This document shows positions 1,727 to 62,338 of a DNA stretch of 64,000 nucleotides, in pieces (within the stretch, counting starts at the first letter, position 1; every line of letters starts with the position of its first letter). The position numbers and the translations under genes are program-made. The notes below the pieces were generated by a model. That model searched no databases and was not told the origin of the DNA. It saw only the letters and a program-made list of their open reading frames with translations. The DNA comes from Patescibacteria group bacterium. GTDB lineage: Bacteria > Patescibacteriota > Minisyncoccia > Moranbacterales > JAKLHP01. Where the stretch lies: contig JAZDKA010000041.1 in the NCBI GenBank assembly GCA_043803385.1, positions 19,799-83,798 on the forward strand, read 5' to 3'.

Positions 1727-1850
1727 ATTAATTGCTACTACACAACTACATATAGTAGTAATAAAAAAATATTATACACATTACTCCGACTGCAGGAATG
1801 TGTATAAAAATTATATAACACTTAACTCCGATCGGACGTAAGTGTTATAT
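1727..1850 (+). repeat. Family H structured intergenic element (three hairpins), copy 1
   Basis: ~120-nt element repeated at 3576-3700. It contains hairpins tactac/gtagta, tatacacatt-N14-aatgtgtata and tataacactta...taagtgttata with an inner ccgatcgg palindrome. Confidence 0.7.
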
Positions 1851-2441
1851 AGCAAAAATATGACGGAAGTTGTTGTTTTAATTGATGGATATTTCAAGAA
1901 TTTATCGAAAACGAGATGTATTGCTGGACCAACCATTACCTTGATAAAGGATGAAGAAAGGAATATCTTAGTTGACACTGGCAATCCCAAAGATAAGGAA
2001 AAAATATTGAAAGCTTTGGCGAAGCATAATTTAGAACCTAAGGATATTGACATTGTAATTAATACCCATTTTCACCCGGATCATACGGGGTGCAATTATC
2101 TATTCAATAAATCTCGTTTTTTGACTCATGGGGTAGCTTTTTGGAATGATATTTTCGATCGGAGCAAAAAACTTCAGGAAATATCAAATAATGTGAAAAT
2201 AATTCCAACACCGGGACATTCTGAAGGCAGCATCACTATTTTAGTGAAAAAGGACAAAAAAATAATTGCAATAGTTGGCGATTTATTTTGGTCAGAGAAA
2301 GATGTTAAGATAGGATTATTGAAAGAAGATTGTACTGATAAAAAACTATTTGGCAAAAATCGTAATAAAATTTTGAAAATAGCAGAGTGGATCATTCCGG
2401 GTCATGGAAAAATGTTTAAAGTGAAAAAATATATAACATAA
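1842..2441 (+). CDS. Metallo-beta-lactamase fold hydrolase
   Basis: Has the HFHPDHTG (HxHxDH) zinc motif and a later TPGHSEGS motif. Length 199 aa. Confidence 0.75.
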   Translation: MLYSKNMTEVVVLIDGYFKNLSKTRCIAGPTITLIKDEERNILVDTGNPKDKEKILKALAKHNLEPKDIDIVINTHFHPDHTGCNYLFNKSRFLTHGVAFWNDIFDRSKKLQEISNNVKIIPTPGHSEGSITILVKKDKKIIAIVGDLFWSEKDVKIGLLKEDCTDKKLFGKNRNKILKIAEWIIPGHGKMFKVKKYIT

Positions 2442-2463
2442 TTCGTCGGTCGACAGAAAAATT

Positions 2464-3552
2464 ATGAAACAATTAAAGAAAATTGAATATAAAAAAATAA
2501 ATAGCCCGTCATTTTTTATTGGTAAGGGAAATAATGATTTGATTTCATTTGGTTCGGGGCAGCCCGATTTGCCGCCACCGCCAGAGATTTTTCACATTCT
2601 GCCAAATTACCGTGATTTCAAATATGGTTTAGTTCAAGGACAGGAAAATTTGCGCCAGGCATTAGCGAAGCAGTATGAAGATGCCAGCGCCGAAAGCTTT
2701 GTAATTACAAATGGTGCATCCGAGGCGCTAGATTTGGTTTTGCGGGCTTTATATGAACCGGGTGCAAAAATTCTTTTGCCTCGGCCTTATTATTATTCCT
2801 ATCCCCACAATGTCCAGCTGGCATTTATGAAACCAGTTTATTATAATTTGGTGCGGGGAAAAATTGATTTTGAAAATTTTTCTAAGCAAATTCAAGGTTG
2901 CCGAGCTGTTTTAATCAATTCTCCGGCCAATCCGACCGGCAGCATCCAGGATCTGGATGTCTTGAAAAAGATTGAAAAATTGGCGCACGACCTCAGCATT
3001 TACATAATTTCTGACGAGGTTTATAAAGACCTTATTTATGAGCGGGAAAATTATCTGTTCAAAGGCAAGAAAATAATCACTCTTAATTCTTTTTCCAAAA
3101 CCTTTGCTATGTGCGGTTTCAGGGTAGGCTATGTATACGCGCGGGAAAAATGGATTATTGAAAAAATTGTGGAGATGAAAACGCATACTTCCATGAACAC
3201 TAATATTTTAGGGCAGGAAATGGCTTTTGAAGCCATAAAAGTGCCGCGAAGTTATGTTGATGCGCAGGTCAAAACTTGGAAGGAGAGGCGAGATTTGATT
3301 TATCACGGCTTGCTGGATTTGGGGCTGGATTTATGGAAACCCGAAGGTGCTTTTTATGTTTTTCCCAGATTCAAAAATCCAAATAAAGTTGTAAATGATT
3401 TATACTATAAGTATAAGATGATTACTTACGACGGGACTTGGTTTGGCGATCCGGCCAGAGTCCGCTTTTCCTATGCACTGGATATTGAAAAAATTCAGGA
3501 GGGATTAAGAAGATTAAAAAAATATCTAAGCAAAGAATACAAAGAAAATTAA
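2464..3552 (+). CDS. PLP-dependent aminotransferase class I/II (aspartate aminotransferase family)
   Basis: Has NSPANPTG and the SFSKTFAMCGFRVGY lysine-region motif typical of fold-type I aminotransferases. Confidence 0.8.
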   Translation: MKQLKKIEYKKINSPSFFIGKGNNDLISFGSGQPDLPPPPEIFHILPNYRDFKYGLVQGQENLRQALAKQYEDASAESFVITNGASEALDLVLRALYEPGAKILLPRPYYYSYPHNVQLAFMKPVYYNLVRGKIDFENFSKQIQGCRAVLINSPANPTGSIQDLDVLKKIEKLAHDLSIYIISDEVYKDLIYERENYLFKGKKIITLNSFSKTFAMCGFRVGYVYAREKWIIEKIVEMKTHTSMNTNILGQEMAFEAIKVPRSYVDAQVKTWKERRDLIYHGLLDLGLDLWKPEGAFYVFPRFKNPNKVVNDLYYKYKMITYDGTWFGDPARVRFSYALDIEKIQEGLRRLKKYLSKEYKEN

Positions 3553-3575
3553 AAAATATTGCAGGAAATACCGGA

Positions 3576-3700
3576 AATTAATTGCTACTACACAATTACA
3601 TATAGTAGTAATAAAAAACATTCTACACATTACTCCGACTGCAGGATTGTGTAGAAAAATTCTACAACACTTAACTCCGGCCGGACGTAAGTGTTATATA
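3576..3700 (+). repeat. Family H structured intergenic element, copy 2
   Basis: Same three-hairpin architecture as 1727-1850. Stem substitutions are compensatory (tata..tata -> tcta..taga; ccgatcgg -> ccggccgg). Confidence 0.7.
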
Positions 3701-3721: not shown

Positions 3722-4555
3722 ATGGCAAATAAAGCTAAAAGAAAATATTCGATTGGAGTTTTTGATTCAGGTTTTGGCGGGCTTCAGATTTTGAAACATA
3801 TTGTCAAGGAGCTTCCTGAATATAATTATATTTATCTCGGAGATACAGCCAGAATTCCATATGGAAGCCGATCTCAAGAAAGTATCCTTAATTTTGCCAC
3901 TCAAGCTGTGGATTTTCTTTTCAAAAAAGATTGCAAGCTAATAATTTTCGCCTGTAATACTGTCTCGGCAAAGGCTCTTCGTAAAATTCAGAGGGAATAT
4001 TTACCGAGACATTATCCTGATAGAAAAGTTTTGGGAGTAATTATTCCAGCCGTTGAGGAAGTGACCAGCAAGGGCCACAACGCAATCGGGATTATTGCTA
4101 CGCAAGGCAGCGTTTCTTCCAATGCATTTGTCGAAGAAATAAAGAAAATTAATCCCAATGCTAAAGTTTTTCAACAAGCTTGTCCGCTGCTGGTTCCAAT
4201 TGTGGAAGCAGGCGAGGAAAAATCAAAAGCAACAGGCATAATACTTGAAAAATATCTCAAGTCATTGCTCAAAAATAACATAGATGCTTTGATTTTGGGC
4301 TGCACGCATTACGGTTTTTTAGAGAATAAAATTAAAAAAATAATAGGAAAAAACATTGAAGTTATTAGCGAGGGGAAAATAGCAGCTAAGAAATTAAGAG
4401 AATATTTGTTAAAACATCCTGAAATAGAAAAAGCACTTGGTCAAAGTTCAAAAATAAATTTTTTTACAACTGATTTAACTGAAGAGTTTGAAATTATGGG
4501 AAGCAAATTTTTTGGCAAAAAAATTGTTCCACAGAAAGCAAAAATAGATAAATAA
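3722..4555 (+). CDS. murI: Glutamate racemase
   Basis: Has VFDSGFGGL, FACNTVSA and LGCTHY catalytic-cysteine motifs. Length 277 aa. Confidence 0.85.
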   Translation: MANKAKRKYSIGVFDSGFGGLQILKHIVKELPEYNYIYLGDTARIPYGSRSQESILNFATQAVDFLFKKDCKLIIFACNTVSAKALRKIQREYLPRHYPDRKVLGVIIPAVEEVTSKGHNAIGIIATQGSVSSNAFVEEIKKINPNAKVFQQACPLLVPIVEAGEEKSKATGIILEKYLKSLLKNNIDALILGCTHYGFLENKIKKIIGKNIEVISEGKIAAKKLREYLLKHPEIEKALGQSSKINFFTTDLTEEFEIMGSKFFGKKIVPQKAKIDK

Positions 4556-4836: not shown

Positions 4837-4841
4837 AAAGG

Positions 4842-4868
4842 ATCAGATTTTAACCTGATCCTGTGGCT
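4842..4868 (-). terminator. Rho-independent terminator for the 4850-5287 gene
   Basis: ggatcag/ctgatcc stem followed, on the minus strand, by a T-run (aaaaataaaaa on the plus strand). Confidence 0.5.
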
Positions 4869-6126: not shown

Positions 6127-7209
6127 ATGTTTAAAAAATTTGAAAATTTTTCTAAAATGATAGGAGGATTATTCGGTAAAGTTTCCCAGGATATCGGAAT
6201 CGATCTTGGAACAGCCAACACTTTGGTATACGTTAAAGGAAAAGGGATTATGATCAATGAACCTTCTGTTGTAGCCGTTAACAAAAAAACCGGACAAATT
6301 TTAGCTATCGGGAAAGATGCCAAAAGAATGGTTGGAAAAACCCCGAGTCATATTGTGGCAACCAGGCCATTAGTTGACGGGGTAGTGAGCGACTTTGAAA
6401 TTACTGAACAAATGCTCCGCCATTTTATTAATAAAGTCGGAAAGCAATCCTTTTCTCTTATTCCTCGCCCAAGAGTGCTCATTGGAATTCCTTCAGGAAT
6501 AACAGAAGTCGAAAAGAAAGCAGTTGTTGATGCCGCAACCAATGCGGGAGCAAGAGAAGCTTTTCTTATTGATGAACCGATGGCGGCGGCAATTGGAGCG
6601 CGCCTTCCAGTAACGGAAGCAGCGGGGAATATGGTGGTAGATATCGGCGGAGGAACTTCAGAAATCGCGGTAATATCTCTGGGCGGAGTGGTAGTTTCAA
6701 GAAGTTTGCGTGTAGCCGGAGATGAAATGAATGAAGATATCGTGAGATATTGCCGGGACGAATTCAATCTGCTGATTGGAGAGAAAACAGCTGAGGATGT
6801 AAAAATAGCCATCGGAAGCGCTTATCCGATGAAAGAAAGCATGACTCTTCCTGTTCGAGGAAGAGATCTTATCAGCGGGCTTCCAAAAGAAGTTATCGCC
6901 AATGACGAGCAAATCAGGCAGGCATTATCAAGGTCAATCAGGATCATTGTTAATAATATCAAATCGGTAGTAGAAGATACTCCGCCGGAACTTTTGGCCG
7001 ATGTGATGCAAAGGGGGATAATATTGGCCGGGGGTGGAAGTTTGATCCGCGGAATGGATAAATTAGTTGCCAACCAAACTGAGATGCCGGTTAGAATGAT
7101 GGAAGATCCTTTGACAGCCGTAGTTCGCGGAACTGGAATAGTGCTTGAAGATCTTGAAAATCTTAAGGACGTCTTGGTTGAAAGCGAATACGGAAAATCC
7201 CTTATTTAA
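6127..7209 (+). CDS. mreB: Rod shape-determining protein MreB
   Basis: Has GIDLGTANT, EPSVVA and DIGGGTSE actin-fold motifs. Length 360 aa. Confidence 0.9.
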   Translation: MFKKFENFSKMIGGLFGKVSQDIGIDLGTANTLVYVKGKGIMINEPSVVAVNKKTGQILAIGKDAKRMVGKTPSHIVATRPLVDGVVSDFEITEQMLRHFINKVGKQSFSLIPRPRVLIGIPSGITEVEKKAVVDAATNAGAREAFLIDEPMAAAIGARLPVTEAAGNMVVDIGGGTSEIAVISLGGVVVSRSLRVAGDEMNEDIVRYCRDEFNLLIGEKTAEDVKIAIGSAYPMKESMTLPVRGRDLISGLPKEVIANDEQIRQALSRSIRIIVNNIKSVVEDTPPELLADVMQRGIILAGGGSLIRGMDKLVANQTEMPVRMMEDPLTAVVRGTGIVLEDLENLKDVLVESEYGKSLI

Positions 7210-7302
7210 CTACGAATTACGAATTTTATACAAATATACGAATGTACTAATATTTTTTAATTCGTATATTGGTATATTTGTACTTGATTAGTAATTCGTA
7301 GT
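7210..7302 (+). repeat. Family A MITE-like palindromic element (ctacgaattac...gtaattcgtag)
   Basis: Terminal inverted repeats ctacgaattac/gtaattcgtag with a nested inner palindrome tacaaatatacgaat/attcgtatatttgta. A near-identical reverse-complement copy is at 31114-31206. Confidence 0.8.
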
Positions 7303-7308
7303 CTATTT

Positions 7309-8121
7309 ATGTCTTTTAACTTTTTTCAAACAAAACTTTTCAAGGTGATTGCCGTATCTTCAATAGCATTTTTTTTCATAATTATAAATCCCTACAAGAT
7401 TTTTAATCCAGTTCGCTCGGTATTTTTAGTGATTTTTTCTCCAATTCAGAAAGTAGCTTATGGGCTGTCTTTTGAAATTAAACAAGTCAAAAATTTTCTT
7501 TCTTCCATAGGCCAGCTAAAAAACGAAAATGAAAAGCTTATAAAAGAAAACAGGGAACTTTTGTCTTTGAAAATAAGCCTTGAAGAAGCAGGAAGGGAAA
7601 ATGAAATTTTGCGCCGGGAACTAAAACTGCTTCCAATGGATAAATTTAATCTTGAAGGAGCTTCACTGGTAGGGAAAGATCCTCATGGAAAAGGCGATTG
7701 GATTGAGATTGACAAAGGGGGAAAGGATGGAATTGGCGAGGAAATGCCGGTTGTTGTCGGTTCAGGAATTTTAATAGGGAAAGTAAGCGAAGTTTTTCCG
7801 ACGACTTCGAAAATCGTCCTGCTTAGCAATCCAGGGAGCGCCATAAATGCCGTAGATTCGAAAACCGGTTCCAAGGGAGTAGTTCGAGGAGAATATGGCC
7901 TGGGAATAATAATGGATATGGTTCTCCAAAGCGAAGCCTTGAATCAAGGCGATGATGTGATTACTTCCGGAATAGGCAAGGAATTTCCCAGAGGACTCCT
8001 GATAGGAAAAGTGTCCGCGGTAAATCCTTCAGAAGATAGGCTTTTTCAAAAAGCGATAATTTCTTCTCCAGTGGATTTTAATAACTTGCAGTTCGTTTTT
8101 GTCGTTAAAAAAGGCATTTGA
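7309..8121 (+). CDS. mreC: Rod shape-determining protein MreC
   Basis: N-terminal TM segment, a coiled-coil region (ENEKLIKENRELLSLK), and a C-terminal beta domain. It sits between mreB and mreD. Confidence 0.75.
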   Translation: MSFNFFQTKLFKVIAVSSIAFFFIIINPYKIFNPVRSVFLVIFSPIQKVAYGLSFEIKQVKNFLSSIGQLKNENEKLIKENRELLSLKISLEEAGRENEILRRELKLLPMDKFNLEGASLVGKDPHGKGDWIEIDKGGKDGIGEEMPVVVGSGILIGKVSEVFPTTSKIVLLSNPGSAINAVDSKTGSKGVVRGEYGLGIIMDMVLQSEALNQGDDVITSGIGKEFPRGLLIGKVSAVNPSEDRLFQKAIISSPVDFNNLQFVFVVKKGI

Positions 8122-17458: not shown

Positions 17459-17530
17459 CCAAATCGCAACAAAACTTAAATTATATGCTATAGCATTAAA
17501 TTTAAGTTTTGTTGCGGAGTTAATGAATAG

Positions 17531-22285: not shown

Positions 22286-22371
22286 TAGATTTTGCTAAAG
22301 CAAGCTTCACTAGTAGTTAATTAAACTTGTAGGGTCGCAAAATCTATAATGTGCGACGTTCTCGATATAAA

Positions 22372-22400
22372 GACAAAAGCCCTAAATAAGGGCTTTTGTC
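22372..22400. terminator. Bidirectional terminator hairpin between convergent genes
   Basis: gacaaaagccc-taaataa-gggcttttgtc, flanked by T/A runs. Confidence 0.6.
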
Positions 22401-22414
22401 TTTATCCTCTCTCT

Positions 22415-24572: not shown

Positions 24573-24629
24573 ATTTTTAAAATTTTTAAAAACTTAAATT
24601 TTATGCCATAGCAATGAATTTAAGTTTTG

Positions 24630-25019
24630 TTATCTTGTTAAATCTTTTAATTTTATTGAATACAAAGTTTTCTTTATCTGTTCCTGAAGTTTTGTCCAGA
24701 CGATACTGGAGGCGCAAGAACATTTGGCGTCGCATTTTCCGCTGGCGCATTCCATCGGCACGATTGGTCCTTCAAGAATTTCGATAATTTCTCCAACTTT
24801 AATATTTTTCGGATTCTGGGAAAGCGTATATCCGCCCTCTCTCCCCTTCTGGCTGGATACCAGTTTATTTTTTTTCAAAGCTCTGAATAATTGTTCCAAA
24901 TACTTCAAGGATATCCCCTCTTCTTTGGAGATTTCCTGGAGACTTTTTTGATTGGGATAATTTTTCGCCAGATTAACTGTAGCGCGAAGCCCGTATCCAG
25001 CGCGGGTAGAAAAACGCAT
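24630..25019 (-). CDS. iscR: Rrf2 family transcriptional regulator (IscR-like)
   Basis: N-terminal wHTH (MRFSTRAGYGLRA...) and a C-terminal Cys cluster (CASGKCDAKCSC). It sits upstream of iscS-iscU. Confidence 0.75.
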   Translation of the reverse strand: MRFSTRAGYGLRATVNLAKNYPNQKSLQEISKEEGISLKYLEQLFRALKKNKLVSSQKGREGGYTLSQNPKNIKVGEIIEILEGPIVPMECASGKCDAKCSCASSIVWTKLQEQIKKTLYSIKLKDLTR

Positions 25020-29790: not shown

Positions 29791-30488
29791 TATTTAATGA
29801 TCGTTCCTTTAAACTTCTTCCCATCCATATAATTTCCCAGATTCATTAAATCTCGGCCGTTCATAATTGCCACCTCGATATTTTCTTCCTGGGCGATTTT
29901 GGAAGCAATTGGGTCGAAGGGCGCGTTCATCCCGGGATCCCACTTATCCCCCACTATTTTTCGGAAATCTTTCCAGGAAATTTTTTCTATTTTCTTAGCA
30001 TCGGGAAATTTTCGGGGATCCTTAGTGTAAACGTAATCAATATTGGATAGATTAACCACTCGCTTGATATCCATATATTTTGCCAGAATTACCGCGTCGT
30101 AATCAGAAGAAAAGCCCGGTCTCCAGCCAGCTCCAATTAAAATAGATTCTTTGAAGTTATAGAAATCTTCCAGATCGTGAGGATTGGTATTTATTCTTGG
30201 ATGGGCATAATTTCTGAAAATTGTTCTTAGAAAATGTCCATTCATTCTGGTCGCGTGAATTCCCAACCAATCTTTGTCATCATTGGTGACAGAGCTATCG
30301 CCTACCTTGACTGAAGCCTCGATATATTTTCTGGCTGTTTTTCCTCCTCCGGTAATTAAGATAAATTTATAACCTTTTTTGATGTAGCCAACAATTAATT
30401 TCTTGAAGTTTTTTACAAATTGAGCATCGATTTCATCGGGAACGATGAGCGATCCTCCAAGAGAGATTACGATGGTTTTTTTTGCCAT
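29790..30488 (-). CDS. pyrH: UMP kinase (amino-acid kinase family)
   Basis: Start taken at MAKKTIVISLGGSL. Has ITGGGKTARKYI and ILIGAGWRPGFSSDYDA...YTKDPRKFPDAKK. Confidence 0.75.
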   Translation of the reverse strand: MAKKTIVISLGGSLIVPDEIDAQFVKNFKKLIVGYIKKGYKFILITGGGKTARKYIEASVKVGDSSVTNDDKDWLGIHATRMNGHFLRTIFRNYAHPRINTNPHDLEDFYNFKESILIGAGWRPGFSSDYDAVILAKYMDIKRVVNLSNIDYVYTKDPRKFPDAKKIEKISWKDFRKIVGDKWDPGMNAPFDPIASKIAQEENIEVAIMNGRDLMNLGNYMDGKKFKGTIIK

Positions 30489-30655
30489 TTTTGTCTGCGA
30501 GGTACGAGCAGCTACAAAAATGAGCATCCCGCACCAATTCTATTAGTTAACTTTTTATTATTTAAAATTAAGCCGCACTTGCCTAAAGTAAGGCGATTCC
30601 GTGAATAAAACTATAAATTTACTCAAGGATATATTCGGAATTGGTGCGGGAAGGC
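30489..30655 (-). repeat. Family B MITE-like element copy B2, filling the whole HIT-pyrH spacer
   Basis: TIRs gagcatcccgcaccaattc / gaattggtgcgggaag and the core aggcgattccgtgaataaaa. It ends ...cgcagacaaaa-ATG. Confidence 0.8.
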
Positions 30656-31105
30656 TTACTTGTTTAATTTAATTATTCTAGCGATTTTTTGGAGTTCTTT
30701 TATATCGGCTTGCTGACCTAATTGAGTTGTCAAATAGCCTTGATATTTTTTCAAAAATACTTTTTCTTTTGCCCAAACTGCTTTAAATTCCGGTCCGACG
30801 CCATGAAGTGGATATAATTTTATATGCGCGTGATTAACTCCCATTCCTTCCATTACTATTGCTACCCTGTTCACTTTTAATCCTTTCTTGAGGAGCTTAG
30901 CCACTTTCTTGGCGGCCAGAAAAAAATCTTTGTAAATTTTGTCATCCATCTCAATCGCATCAGAATCGTAATGCTTTTTCAGCATCACCAGCGCCATTCC
31001 CTTGGTATTGGGAAACGCATCTAAAATGGCGAGAAAATTTTTGTCTTCCCAGATTTTTACTGATGGAATTTCTCCTTTGATAATTTTACAAAAAATACAA
31101 GACAT
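30656..31105 (-). CDS. HIT family (histidine triad) protein
   Basis: CIFCKII...; the histidine motif is GVNHAHIKLYP. Confidence 0.85.
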   Translation of the reverse strand: MSCIFCKIIKGEIPSVKIWEDKNFLAILDAFPNTKGMALVMLKKHYDSDAIEMDDKIYKDFFLAAKKVAKLLKKGLKVNRVAIVMEGMGVNHAHIKLYPLHGVGPEFKAVWAKEKVFLKKYQGYLTTQLGQQADIKELQKIARIIKLNK

Positions 31106-31113
31106 AAATACTG

Positions 31114-31206
31114 ACTACGAATTACTAATCAAGTACAAATATACCAATATACGAATTAAAAAATATTAGTACATTCGTATATTTGTATTAAATTCGTAGT
31201 TCGTAG
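31114..31206 (-). repeat. Family A MITE-like palindromic element, reverse-complement copy
   Basis: >90% identical to the reverse complement of 7210-7302. Confidence 0.8.
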
Positions 31207-32067: not shown

Positions 32068-32089
32068 ATTATCAAAAAAACTTTTATAA

Positions 32090-32114
32090 AAGAGCGACAC
32101 ACTGGCGCTCTTTT
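32090..32114. terminator. Terminator hairpin between rpmA and convergent pyrG
   Basis: aagagcg-acacactg-gcgctctt followed by a T-run. Confidence 0.6.
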
Positions 32115-32145
32115 ATTTTATCATAAATATTCTTAATTCGTAATT

Positions 32146-35941: not shown

Positions 35942-36739
35942 TTATAATAATTTCTTCTTGGCTATATTTTTTAATTCCTCATTGAATTCAGCGATTGCTT
36001 TTTCAATGAGCGGATCGAATTTTTTGTAAATTTCTTTTTTCTTGACAATATTCCCCGCTTCAAGAAGCGAATCGAATGTTCCGGCATCCAGCCATTCGCC
36101 TTTCACAATGCCTACTTCCAGCTCGCCTTTTTCCAAATAATAATTATGGAGAGAGGTAATTTCTATTTCTCCCCTATCGGAAGGCTTTACTTCTTTAGCT
36201 ACTTTCAAAACCTGATTGTCATAAATATAAAGTCCGGGAATGGCATAATCACTTATCCATTCTTTTGGTTTTTCTACTATTTTAATGGCTTTATTATTTT
36301 CATCGAATTTCACAACGCCGGATCTTTCCGGATCATTCACCTTTTTGGCGAATATTTTTCCTCCAGACTTAAAATTCTTAATATCCTCGGAAAAATCATC
36401 TTCAAAAATATTATCTCCCAGGATCATTGTTACGTTGTCATTGTCAATAAAATTTTCTCCGACAATAAAAGCGTCAGCCAAACCTCTCGGAGTTTTTTGC
36501 ACTTCAAAAAACAAATCGATGCCGTAATTTTTAAAAATTGATCCCAGAAGATTAAGGAATTGCCCGCTGTGTTCCGGCGCGACAATGACTAAAATTTCTT
36601 TAATCCCGGCTTTAATTAAGGTATTCAACGGATAGAAAATCATCTGCCGATCATAAACCGGTAAAAGCTGCTTGGATGTCGTAGCGGTGAGAGGGAGTAA
36701 ACGCGTGGCTGTCCCTCCGGCGAGAATAATGCCTTTCAT
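35942..36739 (-). CDS. rmlA: Glucose-1-phosphate thymidylyltransferase-like nucleotidyltransferase
   Basis: MKGIILAGGTATRLLPLT..SKQLLPVYD..MIFYPL. Confidence 0.75.
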   Translation of the reverse strand: MKGIILAGGTATRLLPLTATTSKQLLPVYDRQMIFYPLNTLIKAGIKEILVIVAPEHSGQFLNLLGSIFKNYGIDLFFEVQKTPRGLADAFIVGENFIDNDNVTMILGDNIFEDDFSEDIKNFKSGGKIFAKKVNDPERSGVVKFDENNKAIKIVEKPKEWISDYAIPGLYIYDNQVLKVAKEVKPSDRGEIEITSLHNYYLEKGELEVGIVKGEWLDAGTFDSLLEAGNIVKKKEIYKKFDPLIEKAIAEFNEELKNIAKKKLL

Positions 36740-36912
36740 GCAATTTTTATCTGCGAGCGTAGCGAGCAGCTATAAAAATTAGCATCCCGCACCAATTCGC
36801 AGTTTATATTTTAATTTTTTTGAAATTTGAGCCGCAGCCTGCCTCAGGCGAGGCGATTCCGTGAATAAAATTATAAATTACCCGTAGCTTTATTCGGAAT
36901 TGGTGCTGGACA
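36740..36912 (-). repeat. Family B MITE-like element copy B3 (its right TIR supplies the last codons and stop of rmlD)
   Basis: ttagcatcccgcaccaattc ... gcctgcctcaggcgaggcgattccgtgaataaaa ... cggaattggtgctgg. Confidence 0.8.
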
Positions 36913-37825
36913 AGTATTCCTTTAATGCTTCTTTCCAGCTTCGAAGTGGGTTTAGTTTGGTATTTATCAAAACTGAAATTTCCGGTCTTTTGGCTGGCCT
37001 TTTGAGGTCTTTCGAAGCTATCGGAATAACTTTAGTTTTGACTTTCTTTAACTTATATAATTCTAACGCGGCTTGGTGCCATGTGCAAGCGCCGGAATTG
37101 GTAACGTGATAAATTCCAAAAGGTTTTTTGGCTTCAACTATTTCTTTAGTTTTTCGCGCCAAATCCGGCGCGTAAGTATAGCAGCTTATTTCATCGTTAA
37201 CTATTTTTACAGATTTATTTTTTCCCCCTAATTCTAGCATTACATCAAAAAAACTTTTTTTTGCTCCTTCGGCTTTGGCAGGTTTTCCGAATAATTTTGA
37301 AGTTCGGATAATATAATACTTCTTAGTGTTCTTTTGAACTTCTATTTCTCCCAAAAGTTTTGTTTTTCCGTATTTATTTATTGGTTTCGGCTTGTCGCTT
37401 TCCTTAAATCCTATTTCCGGCTGAAAATTAGCGTGAAGCATGCAGGAATGACAAGAATGAGCGCATCCCTCCGGCTCTTCTATTTTTGGCTTTCCGTCAA
37501 AAACATAATCAGTTGAATAATGAATGAACATTGCTCCGATTTTTTTGGCGATTTTAGCGAGATATCCTAGAGCCAATCCGTTTATTTTTTTGGCAATTTC
37601 AAACTCTTTTTTTTCTTCGCATTTATCCACAGCATTGTAAGCGGCGGAATTGATAATAATTTTAGGATTTATCACTTTAATTTTTTTGTGAACGGCCACT
37701 TCATTGGCAATATCCAAATCATCTTTGTCCCAAGCGATAACTTTGTAATCCTTATCAGACTTAAAGACAGAAACCAATTCCTGTCCCAGCATTCCTTTCG
37801 CGCCGATTATTAGTATCTTTGCCAT
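36890..37825 (-). CDS. rmlD: dTDP-4-dehydrorhamnose reductase
   Basis: Start taken at MAKILIIGAKGMLGQEL (Rossmann fold). Has YGKTKLLGE (YxxxK). The ORF-track N-terminal extension MVRDAH... is read-through into repeat B4. Confidence 0.75.
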   Translation of the reverse strand: MAKILIIGAKGMLGQELVSVFKSDKDYKVIAWDKDDLDIANEVAVHKKIKVINPKIIINSAAYNAVDKCEEKKEFEIAKKINGLALGYLAKIAKKIGAMFIHYSTDYVFDGKPKIEEPEGCAHSCHSCMLHANFQPEIGFKESDKPKPINKYGKTKLLGEIEVQKNTKKYYIIRTSKLFGKPAKAEGAKKSFFDVMLELGGKNKSVKIVNDEISCYTYAPDLARKTKEIVEAKKPFGIYHVTNSGACTWHQAALELYKLKKVKTKVIPIASKDLKRPAKRPEISVLINTKLNPLRSWKEALKEYLSSTNSE

Positions 37826-37984
37826 TTTTATCTTCGAGTGAAACGAGAAGCTATAAAAATGAGCATCCCGCACCAATTCTTTAAATTAAACTTTTTTATT
37901 ATTTGAGATTAAGCTGCAGGCGATTCCGCGGATATAGATTTTTAATATTGCATATATCTATATTCGGAATTTGGTGCGGGATTT
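37826..37984 (-). repeat. Family B MITE-like element copy B4
   Basis: gagcatcccgcaccaattc ... aggcgattccgcggata ... cggaatttggtgcggga. Confidence 0.8.
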
Positions 37985-37986
37985 CA

Positions 37987-38694
37987 TTATTCATTTATTA
38001 TTTTTTCTAAATATTCTTTAATTTTCAATTGCTCTTCGAATGAATTTTCCAGTTCAATGCTGATAATATCAGGCATATATTTCAGGTATTTTTTGATGTA
38101 GTTTAATTCTTTTAAATCATTCAGAGTGTGGATATCATATGATGGCTCACAATAAGTATATGGAAATAATTCTTTTGATACTCCAGATATATGGCAACAG
38201 CCAATCGGATATTTTTGTATTAGTTTCTCAAAATCAGCGTATTTTTTATTGTTCTTTTTAATTCCATTTTCCCAATGCGAGAAATCAATGCATAATCCAT
38301 TTCCCAGTGATGATATTTCATCTGAAATTGGCACAAAATCCGTATTTTCTAAATAAATTATATTTTTGTATTTAGAATAATCATAATTTACAGGAAATTC
38401 TTTGGGGGAATGAATATTGAAAACCGCTGTCTTAAATTTACTTACGAAATAATTTAATTCATCAACCGGCATATCATCTGGTCTTAAGTGCACATGCGGG
38501 ATTGATTCAATGCCGGTTTTTTCGAGTAAATTATATAGTTCTTTTCTTTCCTCGTTTTTTAAAAAAGTTGGAAAAAGAGCAAGTTCTTTAATATTAAATT
38601 TATCTATTTCTTTGATTTTTTCTCTCCAGTCCGATCCGGGAGTGGTCGTTAGCCCTAATAAAATTTTCTTTTGAGGCATAATAATATAAATCAC
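37987..38694 (-). CDS. Hypothetical protein inside the rml cluster
   Basis: A 235-aa ORF with no recognisable motif. Confidence 0.45.
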   Translation of the reverse strand: MIYIIMPQKKILLGLTTTPGSDWREKIKEIDKFNIKELALFPTFLKNEERKELYNLLEKTGIESIPHVHLRPDDMPVDELNYFVSKFKTAVFNIHSPKEFPVNYDYSKYKNIIYLENTDFVPISDEISSLGNGLCIDFSHWENGIKKNNKKYADFEKLIQKYPIGCCHISGVSKELFPYTYCEPSYDIHTLNDLKELNYIKKYLKYMPDIISIELENSFEEQLKIKEYLEKIINE

Positions 38695-38735
38695 TAATCT
38701 ACGCTAATTAACTTTCGAATTATCACGAATAATTT
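38688..38735 (+). repeat. Family G short repeat copy 2, followed by a perfect 14-bp palindrome ttattcagtatact/agtatactgaataa
   Basis: aaatcactaatctacgctaattaactttcgaattatcacgaataat. Confidence 0.55.
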
Positions 38736-38764
38736 ATTCAGTATACTAGTATACTGAATAAACA

Positions 38765-43088: not shown

Positions 43089-43239
43089 AAAACCGATGCG
43101 AATCTACGAATTAAATGCGAATCTACGAAATGTATGAATCGCGAAGTTGACTTAGTAATCTAGCAAAGATGAGTTATATTGTCAATGTTTTTAGGCTTCA
43201 ATAATATTCGGATAGTTTTAATTTATAAATTTCATAAAT

Positions 43240-43284
43240 CAGACAATTACTTTGATACTTTCGAGTATCAAAGTAATTGTCTGA
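43240..43284. repeat. Perfect 20-bp-stem hairpin (cagacaattactttgatact-ttcg-agtatcaaagtaattgtctg)
   Basis: Seen directly in sequence. Tetraloop ttcg. Confidence 0.8.
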
Positions 43285-43625
43285 TAGTGATAAAATAGAT
43301 TTGAAAGGTTAGCTTAGGATAAATTAAAATTTCGTGGAGTATGCATAAATTAAAAGCGGGTAGTGCTCGATGGCTCTACCCGCGGTATTTCTATGACTTT
43401 CACCTCTCGTTTGAAAGGATTTTTTTCGAGTTTAAGTTTTGAATCTTTGAATTTTGATAAAAATCTAAACTAACTGCAATACTTTCTGCCCACGGATGTG
43501 GAATAGATTGTATATCAGACCTCCTAAGGGAGAATCTAGTGCATGCTTGAAAACTCCAAGGAGTATTTCAAGATATCACCTACCAAGGTAGAGTGATATT
43601 AAGCTAGAAGAACTTAAGATATTGG

Positions 43626-43665: not shown

Positions 43666-44664
43666 TTAACCGATGATCTGAACTTCCGCATCATGACCGC
43701 CTGCCAGATGTGAGAAAAGTGCCTGTTGCTGACGGGAATGCAGGTCTGCCTTGCCCTCATATTCACCCATGAGGAACTTCATGGCAGTGGTTCTGCAATC
43801 GTTGTACGCCTTTGTGAAATTGTCCGTATGCTTCCGTTCTATTTCCGACGGAAACGGAACTTCGGCAATACCTTCACTGGGCACATAGGTTGTGATGTAA
43901 TATCCGTCTATAATGCGTGGCCGTACAATTGCTGTGCGACCATTGTAGCTTACCCTTACCGTAAGCGGTTTGAGTCTTTTTACTTCCTCTGCCGTTTTTG
44001 ACGGCAGCGTATTCACGGTATAAATTGTTTCGGCATGATTCTGAGCGATTTGTTCGCCCAGTCCGGTAATCGCGGTCTGGATTTCTCCCAAATTACGATT
44101 AGTCGCTTGCTGTCGTCTTTCCCCGTCCTGCCTGCGTCTTTCGTCCTGGCGCCGGTTATAAAGAATATATGCGCCGAGACCAAGGAAGCCGAAGATCAAA
44201 ATTGCTGCCATTATCCGGAAGTTTTTGACAATCATGTCGGATACGTTTCCGAGTCTTTCGTAGAGCCAATCAATGTTGCTCGCATTGACTCTATTGGCTT
44301 CCGTATTTTTGATAACAGCGTCTGCGAGCTTATCCACTGATTTCATCGCAGACTTGTGTACCTCCAGGGCAGCTGCATTCGCTCCTTCGACGGCAACTTT
44401 TATTTTTTTGTCGAGAGCATTAAACGCTCCCTCAACCTTGCCGTCCTTGCTTCCGAGGAGTTTCTTCTCGAGACCGTAGACGCTCCCGACTTTCTTCTGG
44501 ACCGCTTTCGCAATCCCCTCCTCGGTAATCTGAGCCGGCTGAGCCGACTGTCCGGCAACGGACGTGTTGCTGTCAACCTGCGGTACTTTAATTTCCGCTT
44601 GTGCCGTGAAAGACACAAGCACCAATGTCAAGATGGCCATAATGGCCAGAATTTTTGTTCTCAT
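43666..44664 (-). CDS. Hypothetical secreted/membrane protein, foreign-looking (GC ~50%, strong SD)
   Basis: Signal peptide, a central TM segment, and an RRQDERRRQDGERRQ stretch. Preceded by AAGGAGGCATCG-ATG. Confidence 0.55.
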   Translation of the reverse strand: MRTKILAIMAILTLVLVSFTAQAEIKVPQVDSNTSVAGQSAQPAQITEEGIAKAVQKKVGSVYGLEKKLLGSKDGKVEGAFNALDKKIKVAVEGANAAALEVHKSAMKSVDKLADAVIKNTEANRVNASNIDWLYERLGNVSDMIVKNFRIMAAILIFGFLGLGAYILYNRRQDERRRQDGERRQQATNRNLGEIQTAITGLGEQIAQNHAETIYTVNTLPSKTAEEVKRLKPLTVRVSYNGRTAIVRPRIIDGYYITTYVPSEGIAEVPFPSEIERKHTDNFTKAYNDCRTTAMKFLMGEYEGKADLHSRQQQALFSHLAGGHDAEVQIIG

Positions 44665-44674
44665 CGATGCCTCC

Positions 44675-46087
44675 TTATCGTTTGAGTTCTTCGTATTTAT
44701 CAGGAATAGAATCTAGCTTCTTCTCCTGCCCGTGCCTTATCGCTATCTCTTTCCCTTTGAGTTCGAGAATGGCCAAAGCCCAGTTGTAGCGGACCTTGTA
44801 AATGACATTCTGCGCCCCACTCAGGGTTGAGGTTTTGATGTGCTTCTTGGTTTTGGGGTCTTTCTTTGACTCATGGCCATTATTGAAATCCCGTTCGGCA
44901 ATCTCATACTGTTTGATTGCTTTTTCAAGAAGCTCCTTGTTGGTTCTGCCAGTGCAGAAATACCAATCAAGGTAAGCATCTCCGTATTCCTTCCGGAGCC
45001 GTTCGTTGTTATAGGAAGGTGTATCGCAGAATAGCGTACCTTCCTCCATTTCCTTGATCTTTTCGATATAAATTGATGGATTGCAGACTGGCTTCGGTGG
45101 CTCGACTTTCGGTGGCGGACATGGTTCCGGCTTTTTTTCCACAATCACTACTTTAGTTTTTGGTGGAGGAGGCGGACTGCAAATATCCACACCGTTTGGC
45201 GGCGTAGTCGGTCCATCATTAAGAGCTAGAACCATCCAGTCATATGCCGTATCGACATATGCTTCGGTCGTTCCGATTAATCCGCCGAGTGACATAGCTA
45301 CTGCCGTGTCGTCCGGCGAACCAAACAGTTTTGCTCCGGCTGCTCCAGATCCAATTGAGAACCCGGAATTTTTCGGGTCTCTGCGCATCCTGTAGAATGC
45401 AAAGACCCGGCTGGTATTGGTCGTCGCCTTAGCTTCCGCCAAGCAACGTCCCAATGCCGCTCCTTTCGGCCACCCATAGTAACCCTCGCATTCGAACTCA
45501 CCTAAGAGTTGGTCACTCGGATAAATCATAGATGAATCCCAATTCAGGATCACCACAGGTTTGTTATCCGAGTTTCCATTGAATGGCACATGAATAACTT
45601 TTTTCACTTCACCTGAAAAGAGCTTGTGAAAAAATCCGCCTTTCCGGTCCGAGAACGAACCGGAACTTCCTGTGTTGCTAAGTCGCTCTTTGGTATAAAT
45701 CCGATAGAGCGGCTGGCATAAGAAAGGTTTCCAACCGTCAACAGTCGGAAAGAGTGGAGCTCCGACGAAACTTCCTACGGGACCAGGTAACGCAGTGATA
45801 TGTTCCCGCTTATCTTCACTGACATATGTGTTAGTCAGCGAATTATCTGCGGAAGAATTTCCGCTGGTGGCATTTGCGTTGCCACCCTTTCCACCAATAC
45901 CAATAGCAGTCTGTTTCTGCTGTTGGTCTTGATTTTGCTTTTGATTCTGATCCTGCGTGGCGTTTCCGCCGGTTGATGTCGCAGTATTCGAGTTTGAATT
46001 ATCAACATTCGTGCTGACGTCTGCCAACACTGGTCCTGTAAAAATCAGGACCGCCAATGCCATAAATACTACAAAAACTGTCTTCAT
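44675..46087 (-). CDS. Hypothetical secreted protein, foreign-looking. Its N-terminal module matches that of the LPXTG protein at 47450-47995.
   Basis: Signal peptide. ADVSTNVDNSNSNTATSTGGNATQ matches ADVNVSVKNTNKNTATATGGTATQ. A proline-rich PPPPKTKVV...PEPCPPPKVEPPKP segment. Preceded by GGAGGTGCAAT-ATG. Confidence 0.55.
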   Translation of the reverse strand: MKTVFVVFMALAVLIFTGPVLADVSTNVDNSNSNTATSTGGNATQDQNQKQNQDQQQKQTAIGIGGKGGNANATSGNSSADNSLTNTYVSEDKREHITALPGPVGSFVGAPLFPTVDGWKPFLCQPLYRIYTKERLSNTGSSGSFSDRKGGFFHKLFSGEVKKVIHVPFNGNSDNKPVVILNWDSSMIYPSDQLLGEFECEGYYGWPKGAALGRCLAEAKATTNTSRVFAFYRMRRDPKNSGFSIGSGAAGAKLFGSPDDTAVAMSLGGLIGTTEAYVDTAYDWMVLALNDGPTTPPNGVDICSPPPPPKTKVVIVEKKPEPCPPPKVEPPKPVCNPSIYIEKIKEMEEGTLFCDTPSYNNERLRKEYGDAYLDWYFCTGRTNKELLEKAIKQYEIAERDFNNGHESKKDPKTKKHIKTSTLSGAQNVIYKVRYNWALAILELKGKEIAIRHGQEKKLDSIPDKYEELKR

Positions 46088-47449: not shown

Positions 47450-47995
47450 CTATTTTGCGTATCTTTTGTAAGTTTTTACAGAACCTGCAGCTACTAATCC
47501 TGAAGCGGCTAAAATTCCAAGCAGTCCCGGAATTCCTGCTCCCGTAGCTGGCAATACTTTCTTGGTTATATAAACTTTTTTTCCGTCTTTATTATGAGTG
47601 TAATAAACCTTCTTTCCGTTTTTGTATTCGTAATGATCATTATTATGATCCTTATTTCCGTTATCTTTATCAACGTCTACCTCCACCTTTGTTTTTGAAG
47701 TTTGGCTAACAGAAGCGCTACCGCCAGTAGTTGACCGCGACTGGCTTTGAGATTGCGACTGTGATTGCGATTGTGATGATTGCGCAAGCTGTGAAGACGA
47801 AGATTGTTTCTGGCCTTGAGATTGCGACTGTGATTGTGATTGCGTTGCAGTTCCTCCTGTCGCAGTTGCCGTGTTTTTGTTAGTATTTTTCACGCTAACG
47901 TTTACGTCAGCGAATGCCAAATTTACAGCCAAAAAACACAAGGCTACGGCTGAAATAGCAAGCATTGACGCATAGATTATTCCCCTTTTTGCCAT
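47450..47995 (-). CDS. LPXTG-motif cell-surface protein (sortase substrate) with Ser-Gln repeats
   Basis: Signal peptide, (SQ)n low complexity, and a C-terminal LPATGAG + hydrophobic stretch + KTYKRYAK sorting signal. Confidence 0.65.
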   Translation of the reverse strand: MAKRGIIYASMLAISAVALCFLAVNLAFADVNVSVKNTNKNTATATGGTATQSQSQSQSQGQKQSSSSQLAQSSQSQSQSQSQSQSRSTTGGSASVSQTSKTKVEVDVDKDNGNKDHNNDHYEYKNGKKVYYTHNKDGKKVYITKKVLPATGAGIPGLLGILAASGLVAAGSVKTYKRYAK

Positions 47996-51765: not shown

Positions 51766-52810
51766 TTAAAATAATACTGATGCATCTCCCTGGGAGTTGT
51801 TTATTATTTCCTTTTCGAAATTTTTCATTGGTTCATCTTTGAAATCAACGGTTTCTTCTTCTTTGTTCCAGGAATAATCTTTGGAAAATACCATGATTTT
51901 CATTTTTTTCATTTCTTCGTAAAGAAATTCTCCGAAAGTTTTTTTGGGCAGAAAAATCTGCCTTATTCTTATAAGTTCGGAATCATTTTCTGTTTTTTTG
52001 TCTTCCACTTCAATAATATGGAATCCAAGGGAGCTTTCAATAATGTCGCTTATTTTCCCCTTGTCTGAAGCAAAGACTGCCTTCGATACTTCTTCAATGA
52101 GCTGGTCTTTTTTGAACCACCCAAGCTCTCCCCCATCTTGGGCAGTTGATCCTTTTGAATATTCCATGGCGACATCGGCAAAAACTTTCTTCTTATTGAG
52201 TTCGGCTTTTGCTTTTTCTATTTGTTCTTTTCCTTTCTTGACCGAACTATCTCTGGATGCAAATATTTTTTCAAGCTCCTGGCGGTATAGATCCGGTTTC
52301 ACGACTTTTTCCTTAAAATCATCAATTGACCAGCCGTATAGTTTTTCCAGGTTATTATTCAAATTATCTCCCGTTCCGTATTCTTCCATTTTTCTGCTTA
52401 AATTTTGGCTGACCATCGCATCCGTTATCTTCATACCTTCTTTTCGGGCTAAAATTTCAATCGCTTTGTCTTCGATCATTCTTTCGAGTACTTCTTTCTC
52501 TTTCATCTTCAGCCTTTTTTTTCCATTTTCAGTGGAAAAATCCACCCGCAAATCAACTTTCGAAAAATCCTGGTTTTCATAAAATTTCTTCACTGATTCA
52601 AGATTGTTATTGAGATTTTTAAATGTGATAAAATTATAATTATTCAAAACCGCAACCGGATATGGGATTATTTTTTCCATTTTTTTAACAGCCTTATAAT
52701 CTTTTCCAAATCCGTAAATAAGAATGCCAAAAACAACGATAATAGCTACAGCTACTATCAAACTAGAGTAAACAATAGTTGATATTTTTACTTCATTATC
52801 TTTTGCCATA
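51766..52810 (-). CDS. PpiC-type (parvulin) peptidyl-prolyl cis-trans isomerase, SurA/PrsA-like
   Basis: Start taken at MAKDNEV. N-terminal TM segment. The parvulin domain carries GGELGWFKKDQL...GFHIIEV. Confidence 0.75.
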
Positions 52811-52952
52811 ATTGTCTTTGAGCGTAGCGAGAAGCTACAATTATGAGCATCCCGCATCAATTTTTTAACTGATATTTATATTTATCCAGGTAAGCCGTAG
52901 GCGATTCCGTGGATAAAACTAGCTTTTGTTTTAAATTTTATTCGAAATTGAT
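52811..52952 (-). repeat. Family B MITE-like element copy B5
   Basis: gagcatcccgcatcaattt ... aggcgattccgtggataaaa ... gaaattgattgcggga. The TIRs show co-varying substitutions. Confidence 0.75.
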
Positions 52953-52971
52953 TGCGGGATTATACATATTT

Positions 52972-53361
52972 TTAATATCTAAAGAAATAATCCCACCATC
53001 TCACATAATTGGGCCGGCTGTCAGTTTCCGCGACAACATTTTTTGTTTCCTGGCTTTCGGCATTTCCTCCCCTCAAGACCGGGCTGGGTTTTATTACTGC
53101 CACATTTTCATTTTCTTTCTGGAGATTGAGTTTTTCTTTGGCAATCCGTTCTTGGAATTCCGGAGTTTCAAAATAGGTTATTTTTTCCTTCATATCGCCG
53201 TTGTTCTGGCGAAGCTTATCTGCTTCCTGGCGCAGAGAACTTATCTCATTTTCAATTTGCTTGTTTCTTCGGTTTTCTTTAAAAGCAAAATAGGAAATCC
53301 ATCCGGCAATAATAATTCCGAAAATTATGAAAATTATTGAAAAAAATGATCTTTTCCCCAT
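52972..53361 (-). CDS. ftsB: Septum formation initiator family protein (FtsB/DivIC-like)
   Basis: N-terminal TM segment and a coiled coil (EISSLRQEADKLRQNNGDMKEKI). Length 129 aa. Confidence 0.6.
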   Translation of the reverse strand: MGKRSFFSIIFIIFGIIIAGWISYFAFKENRRNKQIENEISSLRQEADKLRQNNGDMKEKITYFETPEFQERIAKEKLNLQKENENVAVIKPSPVLRGGNAESQETKNVVAETDSRPNYVRWWDYFFRY

Positions 53362-60368: not shown

Positions 60369-60530
60369 AATAACCTCCTTATGTCCTTAAGATTAAAGGC
60401 CGAAAAGCCTTTTTGAAACAAATCTATATTGTCAAAGGACCAAAAAACCAAGCAAAAACTTGGTCCTCCTCGATAATTTAAAGATAGCAAATGTTGATAA
60501 AAAAGCAAGGAATTTTTATAGCTGTATCGT

Positions 60531-60564
60531 ATAACATATTCCGTCGGTTGACGGAATATGTTAT
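60531..60564. promoter_or_regulatory. 15-bp-stem perfect palindrome ataacatattccgtc-ggtt-gacggaatatgttat upstream of purB (candidate operator)
   Basis: Seen in sequence. No adjacent T-run, so it is not a canonical terminator. Confidence 0.35.
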
Positions 60565-60650
60565 AAAAAAATCTTTACTTATTGCTAATCGGCATTAAAT
60601 GAAGAATAAAATATTTAGATAATTTTGATTTTTGCACTTTGCATTTTCTA

Positions 60651-62294: not shown

Positions 62295-62338
62295 CTCTAC
62301 GAATTACGAATCTGTACAAATATACGAATGTACGAATT
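62295..62338. repeat. Partial family A repeat (tctacgaattacgaatctgtacaaatatacgaatgtacgaatt)
   Basis: Matches the left half of 7210-7302. Confidence 0.6.

Follow-up and report, generated by a model that had tools for sequence, protein, structure and literature searches.

A duplicated three-hairpin element in a Patescibacteria contig, read as a REP/BIME-like mosaic of palindromes dispersed in the CPR

The window, a 64,000-nt stretch of contig JAZDKA010000041.1 from a Patescibacteria group bacterium, carries two copies of a three-hairpin element of about 126 nt, each in a spacer between genes. With a probability of roughly 60%, we interpret this composite as a mosaic of a dispersed palindrome family, similar to the repetitive extragenic palindromic (REP) sequences and bacterial interspersed mosaic elements (BIMEs) of other bacteria. 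Recent duplication of the mosaic is the best reading of the two copies. Hairpins 2 and 3 belong to a dispersed family that displays covariation, dyad symmetry, genome-specific inner sequences, copies inside open reading frames (ORFs) and an associated gene. The genomes of the Candidate Phyla Radiation (CPR), or Patescibacteria, are tiny and tightly packed, so repeated non-coding DNA is unexpected in them and has hardly been described.

The two copies of the composite

Copy 1 (1725-1851, + strand) and copy 2 (3575-3700, + strand) were delimited by repeat boundaries, flanking genes and fold. They are identical at 116 of 126 positions (92%), with one 1-nt indel in an alignment of 126-127 nt, and the similarity breaks off sharply at both borders, beyond which the flanks are unrelated. 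Sub-patterns of the composite 28-33 nt long occur at these two places only in the 64 kb (0 expected from shuffled sequences). Copy 1 starts 5 nt past the stop codon of a SET-domain gene (1720) and ends 8 nt before the ATG of a metallo-beta-lactamase (MBL)-fold gene (1860). The end of copy 2 is 21 nt upstream of the ATG of the glutamate racemase gene murI (3722), and its start is 23 nt past an aminotransferase stop codon (3552). The original prediction had proposed two copies of about 120 nt in the same orientation, placed from SET to MBL and from aminotransferase to murI, and both the repeat and its gene context (Pfam) proved real.

Either copy is predicted to fold into three hairpins, as had been proposed, with minimum free energies of -38.7 kcal/mol for copy 1 (z -7.9) and -31.8 kcal/mol for copy 2 (z -4.6). 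The minus strand of both copies folds about equally well. Hairpin 1 (1731-1762 and 3581-3612 in copies 1 and 2; this and the following hairpins are given on the + strand) has in copy 1 a 10-bp stem with one G-U pair and a 12-nt loop (-7.4 kcal/mol), and contains CTAC...GTAG; it has no family. Hairpin 2 of copy 1 (1772-1807, -11.7 kcal/mol) is a palindromic unit with a foot variant, TTATACACATTA/AATGTGTATAA, and an apical ACTCCG...CAGG. Hairpin 3 of copy 1 (1812-1851, -16.3 kcal/mol) is a palindromic unit of 40 nt that combines the canonical family foot TATATAACACTTA/TAAGTGTTATATA with the centre CCGATCGG. The corresponding units of copy 2 are at 3621-3656 (hairpin 2, with one compensated pair and one U-U mismatch) and at 3661-3700 (hairpin 3, -11.0 kcal/mol), where the left arm has become TCTACAAC through two uncompensated changes and the centre is CCGGCCGG.

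In total, ten differences separate the copies. One is a C to T change in the loop of hairpin 1, and two (the indel and a T to C change) lie in an A-rich linker. In hairpin 2, a single pair is truly compensated (A-U to C-G, alignment columns 50/81), and an A to T change near the top of the stem is disruptive. The left arm of hairpin 3 changes from TATAT to TCTAC, with the right arm TATATA unchanged, and its centre has a double change from GATC to GGCC that falls in the predicted tetraloop (GAUC to GGCC). The stem substitutions had been called compensatory, and their covariation had been taken as the sign of a structure under selection. The pair in hairpin 2 bears this out, but the three other stem changes are uncompensated, and when both copies are aligned with the corresponding sequence of a relative (L004; L-numbers denote loci or contigs retrieved for comparison) only one of 39 pairs has a two-sided change and eight cells are broken. 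Covariation on these three sequences is not significant (171 of 500 shuffles reach the observed score), and thus the argument from covariation fails on these copies alone. The inner palindrome, given as ccgatcgg in one copy and ccggccgg in the other, does keep its symmetry as DNA, but its change is in the tetraloop and involves no RNA pair. Of the loop motif said to be common to hairpins 2 and 3, ACTCCG is present in all four hairpins but the longer ACTCCGA in three of the four.

The two left-arm changes in hairpin 3 of copy 2 lower its predicted stability from -16.3 to -11.0 kcal/mol and make this arm equal to the left arm of hairpin 2 (TTCTACA), which is complementary to the right arm of hairpin 2. 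Because of these changes, copy 2 can form an alternative hairpin (3649-3668, + strand, GTGTAGAAAAATTCTACAAC) that pairs the right arm of hairpin 2 with the left arm of hairpin 3, at -5.4 kcal/mol compared with -1.4 kcal/mol for the matching stretch of copy 1. We infer that the arm changes are the signature of template switching from arm to arm, or of conversion between paralogous arms, a process at the level of DNA.

Among close relatives, L004 and L005 (aminotransferases 87-88% identical to that of the window) have hairpins 2 and 3, without hairpin 1, in the spacer between the aminotransferase gene and murI, and the arrangement of hairpin 2, linker and hairpin 3 is kept in L004. L080 (78-79% identical) has a single hairpin in this spacer; its stem differs from that of hairpin 2 at three compensated positions (GTGACACA/TGTGTCAC), and ACTC-GAC is kept. 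No such element was identified in L001/L002, L003, L077/78, L079, L181/182 or L183, where the junctions are mostly spacers of 1-23 nt or are occupied by other genes. The MBL relatives L179 and L180 have different upstream genes, 6-8 nt away, and also lack the element. A search with nhmmer and a profile of three sequences found nothing new in close relatives. As the element is missing from most relatives, it is lineage-restricted, and copy 1 would be a secondary copy. The block of hairpins 2 and 3 is 73-79% identical to that of L004, compared with 54-62% at third codon positions of the flanking genes; thus, the block is either constrained or younger than the genes around it.

The genes of this region are all on the + strand and were identified by Pfam. 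They encode, in order along the window, the C-terminus of SecA (71-1231), a SET and SEC-C domain protein (1241-1720, followed by copy 1), the MBL-fold hydrolase (1860-2441), the class I/II aminotransferase (2464-3552, followed by copy 2) and glutamate racemase (3722-4555). The best matches of the aminotransferase and MBL proteins fall in CPR/Patescibacteria, and the MBL protein is 100% identical to that of a MAG recorded at NCBI as a Patescibacteria group bacterium. As a separate observation, the 3' ends of secA (1190-1231) and of the SET gene (1679-1720) are 86% identical in nucleotide sequence across 42 nt, and both encode a C-terminal SEC-C zinc motif. In the relative L003, the small gene after secA likewise ends in a SEC-C zinc motif.

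A family of palindromes across the CPR

Hairpins 2 and 3 are paralogous palindromic units of about 38-40 nt that can be aligned to each other and to 20 further units. The pattern shared by the two hairpins is TATA(A)CAC(W)TTA(A)CTCCG ... CGGAC(G)TAA(W)GTG(T)TATA. The family as a whole has a conserved AT-rich foot, (TA)TAACAC(T)TA ... TA(A)GTGTTA(TA), with the same foot TATAACACTTA/TAAGTGTTATA found in units across the CPR. This foot encloses a lineage-specific, covarying, GC-rich inner palindrome and a self-complementary centre, which in most cases is CGATCG or GGCC. The pattern used to retrieve members required the arms of hairpin 3 only and left the inner part free; it matched 71 loci in metagenome contigs and 98 loci in species-representative genomes. 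Most of these matches, from gut, marine and other genomes, were discarded as unrelated hairpins or as matches by chance. The coherent subset consists of dyads of 36-42 nt that share one foot but differ between lineages in the GC-rich inner palindrome. The named sources in this subset are all CPR, and include Saccharibacteria (L102, L145, L171, L152), Paceibacterota (L151) and Zambryskibacteria (L169). The groundwater and sludge members, which are metagenome-assembled genomes (MAGs) and contigs, are L101/L127, L115, L006, L011/L025, L018, L021, L022/23/64, L041, L046 and L075. A pattern made from the loops only (TCCGACTGCAGG N18-42 AACTCCGNNCGGAC) had no matches in genome contigs or metagenome contigs, because the loops are not the conserved part and the source genome is in neither collection.

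Covariation is strong only at the level of the family. For the 11 units whose inner part is 16 nt long, the share of paired cells is 92.9%, compared with 21-51% after sliding of the partners, and two-sided changes occur in 23 cells, which none of 500 shuffles reach. In the set of 24 units that includes the four of the window, 89.8% of cells are paired, 12 of 18 pairs have two-sided changes and 60 cells are changed on both sides (0 of 500 shuffles). Invariant among the units are ACAC/GTGT and the innermost C-G pair, and the length of the inner sequence varies (12, 14 or 16 nt).

Each of the 11 units whose inner part is 16 nt long has a self-complementary central tetranucleotide (GATC in six, GGCC in two, and CATG, AATT and TATA in one each). 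The change from GATC to GGCC between copy 1 and copy 2 conserves this property. An RNA hairpin needs no self-complementary loop, and therefore symmetry of the DNA duplex, or copying at the DNA level, is indicated. The dyad symmetry through the apex points to a palindrome at the level of DNA rather than to selection on an RNA hairpin. Contigs of one MAG or sample have the inner sequence in common: L145 equals L171 over 40 nt, that of L022 (twice), L023 and L064/L152 is identical over at least 38 nt, and those of L101 and L127 are similar.

We built a covariance model, R1, from the 24 units. In copy 1 it scores hairpins 2 and 3 at 42.9 bits (in the training set) and 56.2 bits; the values for copy 2 are 39.3 and 46.9 bits. 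A fifth, solo unit (TATAACATATTCCGTCGGTTGACGGAATATGTTATA, 60529-60566, recorded without a strand) was identified by a hairpin scan between two minus-strand genes. This unit is outside the training set of R1, scores 35.8 bits (E 4e-7; R1 E-values are rough) and has a folding energy of -22.2 kcal/mol. Besides these five units, R1 found nothing below E 0.01 in the window. The units of the window are 36 nt (hairpin 2), 40 nt (hairpin 3) and 38 nt (solo) in length, and all are intergenic.

The position of the units relative to genes is varied. Commonly, a unit starts 0-14 nt from a stop codon or, as in L041, L046 and L075, occupies the gap between convergent genes. One unit (L101) lies between divergent genes, and others are found between co-directional genes, as in the window. 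The unit of L023 follows directly on a canonical terminator, which is GC-rich and has a U7 tail. In L151, a Paceibacterota MAG, units at 77-116 and 371-410 are in frame inside ksgA/rsmA and encode related peptides (ITLSSRSRTKCY and ITSLSRSRKRCY) at two variable loops, which are 6 and 4 residues longer than in the homologue of L127 (44% identity, same frame throughout). No unit of the window is inside an ORF.

A bracketed gene and the explanations considered

At five of about 20 distinct sites, on five contigs, a unit adjoins a gene for a protein of about 185-192 amino acids that matches PaaX_M, the central Cas2-like domain of PaaX (Pfam, E 1e-14 to 1e-24). In all five, the unit is 0-14 nt past the stop codon of this gene, or overlaps it. 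The four complete modules (L022, 2115-2752; L041, 922-1576; L127, 4675-5344; L171, 7287-7951; the fifth, L046 1-475, is partial), with palindromes of about 40 bp, each have a second unit with the same genome-specific inner sequence that ends 3-20 nt before the ATG. The foot of the upstream unit is sometimes altered with compensation, for example ATATCACACTCA/TGAGTGTGATAT in L041. The proteins are mutually 29-39% identical and have invariant residues that include WDGKWR...FD(I)P. They belong to a family (PF20803) that is widespread in the CPR, with 86 clusters at E <= 1e-5, and is annotated as hypothetical, 'Cas2' or 'PaaX'. An AlphaFold model (pLDDT 76) best matches E. coli PaaX and Rv0674, followed by VapD and Cas2 chains, and a profile search of PDB sequences gave a weak PaaX match only. 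No PaaX_M-like homologue was identified in the loci of close relatives, and no relatives of the protein were found in viral contigs.

We tentatively suggest a wider possibility, that hairpins 2 and 3 belong to an undescribed, CPR-wide system in which a protein of about 190 amino acids, with a winged helix-turn-helix (wHTH) domain and a Cas2/VapD fold (PaaX_M), is cognate to perfect palindromes of about 40 bp. The protein could be a candidate mobiliser, nuclease or binder, with palindromes that bracket its gene and are dispersed in spacers and occasionally ORFs. The physical association of gene and palindromes is seen in the five contigs; the role of the protein as a partner, and mobility, are putative.

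In the REP/BIME-like interpretation that we favour, the units would be copied or moved at the DNA level and recognised by a PaaX_M-like protein or another host factor. The 126-nt cluster (hairpin 1 and two units) may have been copied from the aminotransferase-murI spacer to the SET-MBL spacer, 1.85 kb apart; alternatively, the two copies may have been homogenised by conversion. Later changes would have arisen by arm-to-arm template switching. The mosaic is probably transcribed inside a polycistronic secA-to-murI mRNA, because the clusters are in a co-directional array and lack sense-strand U tracts. The transcribed hairpins would form stable stem-loops (-7 to -16 kcal/mol each) that may act as REPs: as barriers to 3' exonucleases, as RNase III sites, or as partial or leaky terminators that uncouple neighbouring genes. 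Protection of mRNA 3' ends and partial termination are established RNA-level effects of REPs.

Several points weigh against this interpretation. The composite has neither a target-site duplication nor terminal inverted repeats. A profile search detected no PaaX_M-like gene in the whole window, and Pfam detected no transposase domain in its ORFs of at least about 70 amino acids up to 53 kb. Only five units at three loci are seen in the 64 kb; in other CPR MAGs or samples, 2-4 copies are spread over separate contigs. For hairpin 1, no relatives were found among the retrieved loci outside the window, and the search for it gave one chance match only. The conservation of the foot is partly a matter of ascertainment, as the search pattern came from hairpin 3. 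Exempt from this are units that the pattern did not retrieve, namely the upstream ones of the PaaX_M modules, the L151 unit at 371-410 and the window unit at 60529. Furthermore, both the RNA-level role and the mobility of the units are putative.

A different role for the same protein would be that of a dimeric wHTH regulator with the palindromes as its DNA binding sites. It would autoregulate its own gene via the upstream site and control or organise other loci, as a regulon or in the manner of parS or matS, and the clusters of the window would be such sites in front of the MBL gene and murI. This would be consistent with perfect dyad symmetry through the centre, with conservation of the foot despite partner proteins of 29-39% identity, with the resemblance of the protein model to the repressor PaaX, and with the placement of units close to start codons (in all four modules 3-20 nt upstream of that of the wHTH gene, and for hairpin 3 at 8 and 21 nt from those of MBL and murI). 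However, the spacing of the half-sites varies with the inner sequence, the neighbouring genes have no functional coherence, and sites occur between convergent genes or in ksgA, where no promoter is expected. Moreover, the exact agreement of copies of one genome over 36-41 nt suggests that they were copied and did not converge on a motif, and the partner gene is not in the window. We consider this explanation unlikely.

Less likely still is that the three-hairpin element is a dedicated structured RNA, either a non-coding RNA (ncRNA) or, acting in cis on MBL and murI, a leader or attenuator. Of the four roles originally offered for the element, we retain the REP-like one, possibly with protein recognition, but not the ncRNA or attenuator. 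Features in favour of an RNA are the strong predicted fold, a compensated pair between the copies, three compensated stem positions in the orthologous hairpin of L080, the strand-specific ACTCCG in all units of the window's lineage, and conservation of the element above that of synonymous sites. However, the minus strand folds equally well, the copies have three uncompensated stem changes and no significant covariation, and the changes at the apex conserve DNA symmetry. Rfam 15 had no match at the gathering score in the whole window (best sub-threshold matches 20-24 bits, gathering score 80), no promoter-like site for an independent transcript was found by a promoter scan, and no terminator tail follows on the sense strand. 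The element is missing upstream of MBL and murI in most relatives, with their spacers of 1-23 nt, and the palindromic unit recurs in unrelated CPR contexts: beside unrelated genes, between convergent genes and inside a coding gene. The in-frame units of ksgA are hard to reconcile with either an operator or a dedicated RNA.

The least probable explanation, that hairpins 2 and 3 terminate antisense transcription or act bidirectionally, draws on the U runs that follow hairpins 3 and 2 on the minus strand (AAUUUUUA and AUAUUUUUUUA) and on the frequent position of family units just past stop codons and between convergent genes, but the neighbouring genes are all on the + strand, the U/A runs are not conserved in L004 or in CPR-wide units, the L023 palindrome is already preceded by a canonical terminator, and termination needs no conservation of a foot across phyla. 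A scan for intrinsic terminators found none in 1725-1851 or 3575-3700, where the sense strand has A runs before the hairpins and no U runs after any of them. Canonical terminators were identified elsewhere in the window (4839-4862, 22367-22405 and 32086-32116).

We also considered and set aside several known sequence types. The arms of hairpin 2 in copy 1 match DnaA boxes (TTATACACA/TGTGTATAA; consensus TTATNCACA), but copy 2 has TTCTACACA/TGTGTAGAA, which departs from the consensus with compensation, and the 64 kb contain no more than 2+2 boxes, which is not an enrichment. An uptake sequence (of the USS or DUS type known for DNA uptake) is not indicated, as the core words lack over-representation: AACACTTA occurs 2+4 times with about 2 expected per strand, and ACTCCG occurs 19+14 times with about 8 expected per strand, but its occurrences outside the elements are scattered. 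A promoter at the 3' end would use TGTTATATA for its extended -10, but the last T of the hexamer is missing and the scan was empty in both elements; the location of many family units between convergent genes also weakens this possibility. The integron attC motif is approached with one mismatch in each half (ATATAAC/GTTATAT versus RYYYAAC/GTTRRRY), but the dyads are perfect without extrahelical bases, housekeeping genes flank them, and no integrase was seen (no further test was made). A composite transposon (element, MBL, aminotransferase, element) is unlikely because the aminotransferase gene is conserved and syntenic in all relatives.

If a Cas2-like protein does disperse or bind the palindromes that bracket its gene, this would be a new partnership of protein and repeat, and would extend the roles of Cas2-fold proteins beyond CRISPR and toxin-antitoxin systems. 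The units also have practical consequences, as they can break assemblies and create spurious 'structured RNA' calls, and may mark operon sub-boundaries where transcript maps do not exist. In the full text of the literature, whose coverage is incomplete so that this is absence of evidence only, we found no REP-type repeats in Patescibacteria, no description of the foot sequence, and no description of a Cas2-like gene with flanking palindromes.

Other repeats of the window and comparison with known systems

The window has further structured repeats. Four minus-strand elements of about 180 nt (30470-30665, 36728-36925, 37809-38000 and 52793-52990) are directly upstream of four minus-strand genes (amino-acid kinase family, NTP transferase, RmlD and a peptidyl-prolyl isomerase, PPIase). 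Inside a long-range helix UCCCGCACC...GGUGCGGGA, each has an AAUUCCG...CGGAAU helix and a conserved CGGAAUCGCC; after the long-range helix comes a hairpin that ends at a conserved AAAUGGCAAA with the start codon. Of the 44 pairs predicted by RNAalifold, 8 have two-sided changes, and Rfam has no match; this looks like a riboswitch-like or leader RNA family.

A second palindrome family includes a 52-nt near-perfect dyad (CGCAACAAAACTTAAATTATATGCTATAGCATTAAATTTAAGTTTTGTTGCG, 17465-17516) and a 91% similar copy (24589-24631), which fill the spacers of co-directional genes (LigT to WecG and Rrf2 to IscS). A further intergenic family has words that contain ACGAAT (TACGAATTACGAAT...), at 7194-7317, 31114-31180 and 62315-62353; the first of these, between mreB and mreC, is an inverted repeat with 58-nt arms. 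Long perfect hairpins at 38733-38762 (a 30-nt dyad centred on ACTAGT) and 43238-43285 (a 22-bp stem with a TTCG loop) are in spacers of a minus-strand array of sugar-nucleotide and glycosyltransferase genes. This genome seems generally prone to long stable stem-loops between co-directional genes.

Two adjacent ORFs at 43666-46087 (332 and 470 amino acids) have no Pfam match, a G+C of 0.48 (about 0.36 elsewhere) and preceding gaps of 577 and 491 nt; this region may be acquired DNA. Two 38-nt direct repeats at 47741-47847 (89% identical, 69 nt apart, rich in GATTGCGA/GATTGTGA) are inside an ORF of 181 amino acids without a Pfam match.

The units have features in common with several classes of small repeats. 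Rickettsia palindromic elements (RPEs) are likewise found between genes and in frame inside coding genes, where they add a peptide, as in ksgA of L151. However, RPEs are about 100-150 bp compared with about 40 bp here, there is no sequence similarity, and no in-ORF copy is present in the window. Correia elements of Neisseria and other miniature inverted-repeat transposable elements (MITEs) are also small, non-autonomous, intergenic repeats, with inverted-repeat ends that begin TATA. When co-transcribed, Correia elements form hairpins that are sensitive to RNase III. The units here are one third of the size of a Correia element and are not associated with a transposase of the insertion sequence (IS) type. 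The composite differs in its ends as well: its borders, AAATTAATTG... and ...GTTATATA, are not the inverted repeats of a MITE, and its flanks carry no duplication.

The parS sites of ParB systems resemble the family as perfect palindromes conserved over a very wide taxonomic range, in few copies per genome and beside the gene of a presumed binder. Differences are that the units are 36-42 bp with an inner part that is variable, covarying and of variable spacing, that they are almost always intergenic, unlike parS, and that the partner protein is unrelated to ParB.

The closest likeness is to the REP and BIME sequences of Enterobacteria and Pseudomonas. These too are extragenic palindromes of 20-40 nt, often past stop codons or between convergent genes, with a genome-specific sequence shared among the copies of one genome. 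They form mosaics with short conserved linkers, as does the order of hairpin 1, linker, hairpin 2, linker and hairpin 3 kept in both copies. REPINs and their REP-associated tyrosine transposases (RAYTs) add a further parallel, as cognate palindromes flank a single small gene. The differences are that REPs are present in tens to hundreds of copies per genome, compared with 2-5 per available sequence so far, and that the units here are perfect dyads through the centre. The element would work like a REP/BIME but departs from it in two defining features: hairpins 2 and 3 and the CPR units have the foot TATAACAC/GTGTTATA and not GTAG/CTAC, and the gene that is flanked in other CPR contigs encodes a wHTH and Cas2/VapD-like (PaaX_M) protein and not the HUH Y1 transposase of a RAYT. 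If the PaaX_M protein is indeed the partner of the palindromes, the system would be a functional analogue of REP-RAYT, with a Cas2 fold in place of the HUH transposase.

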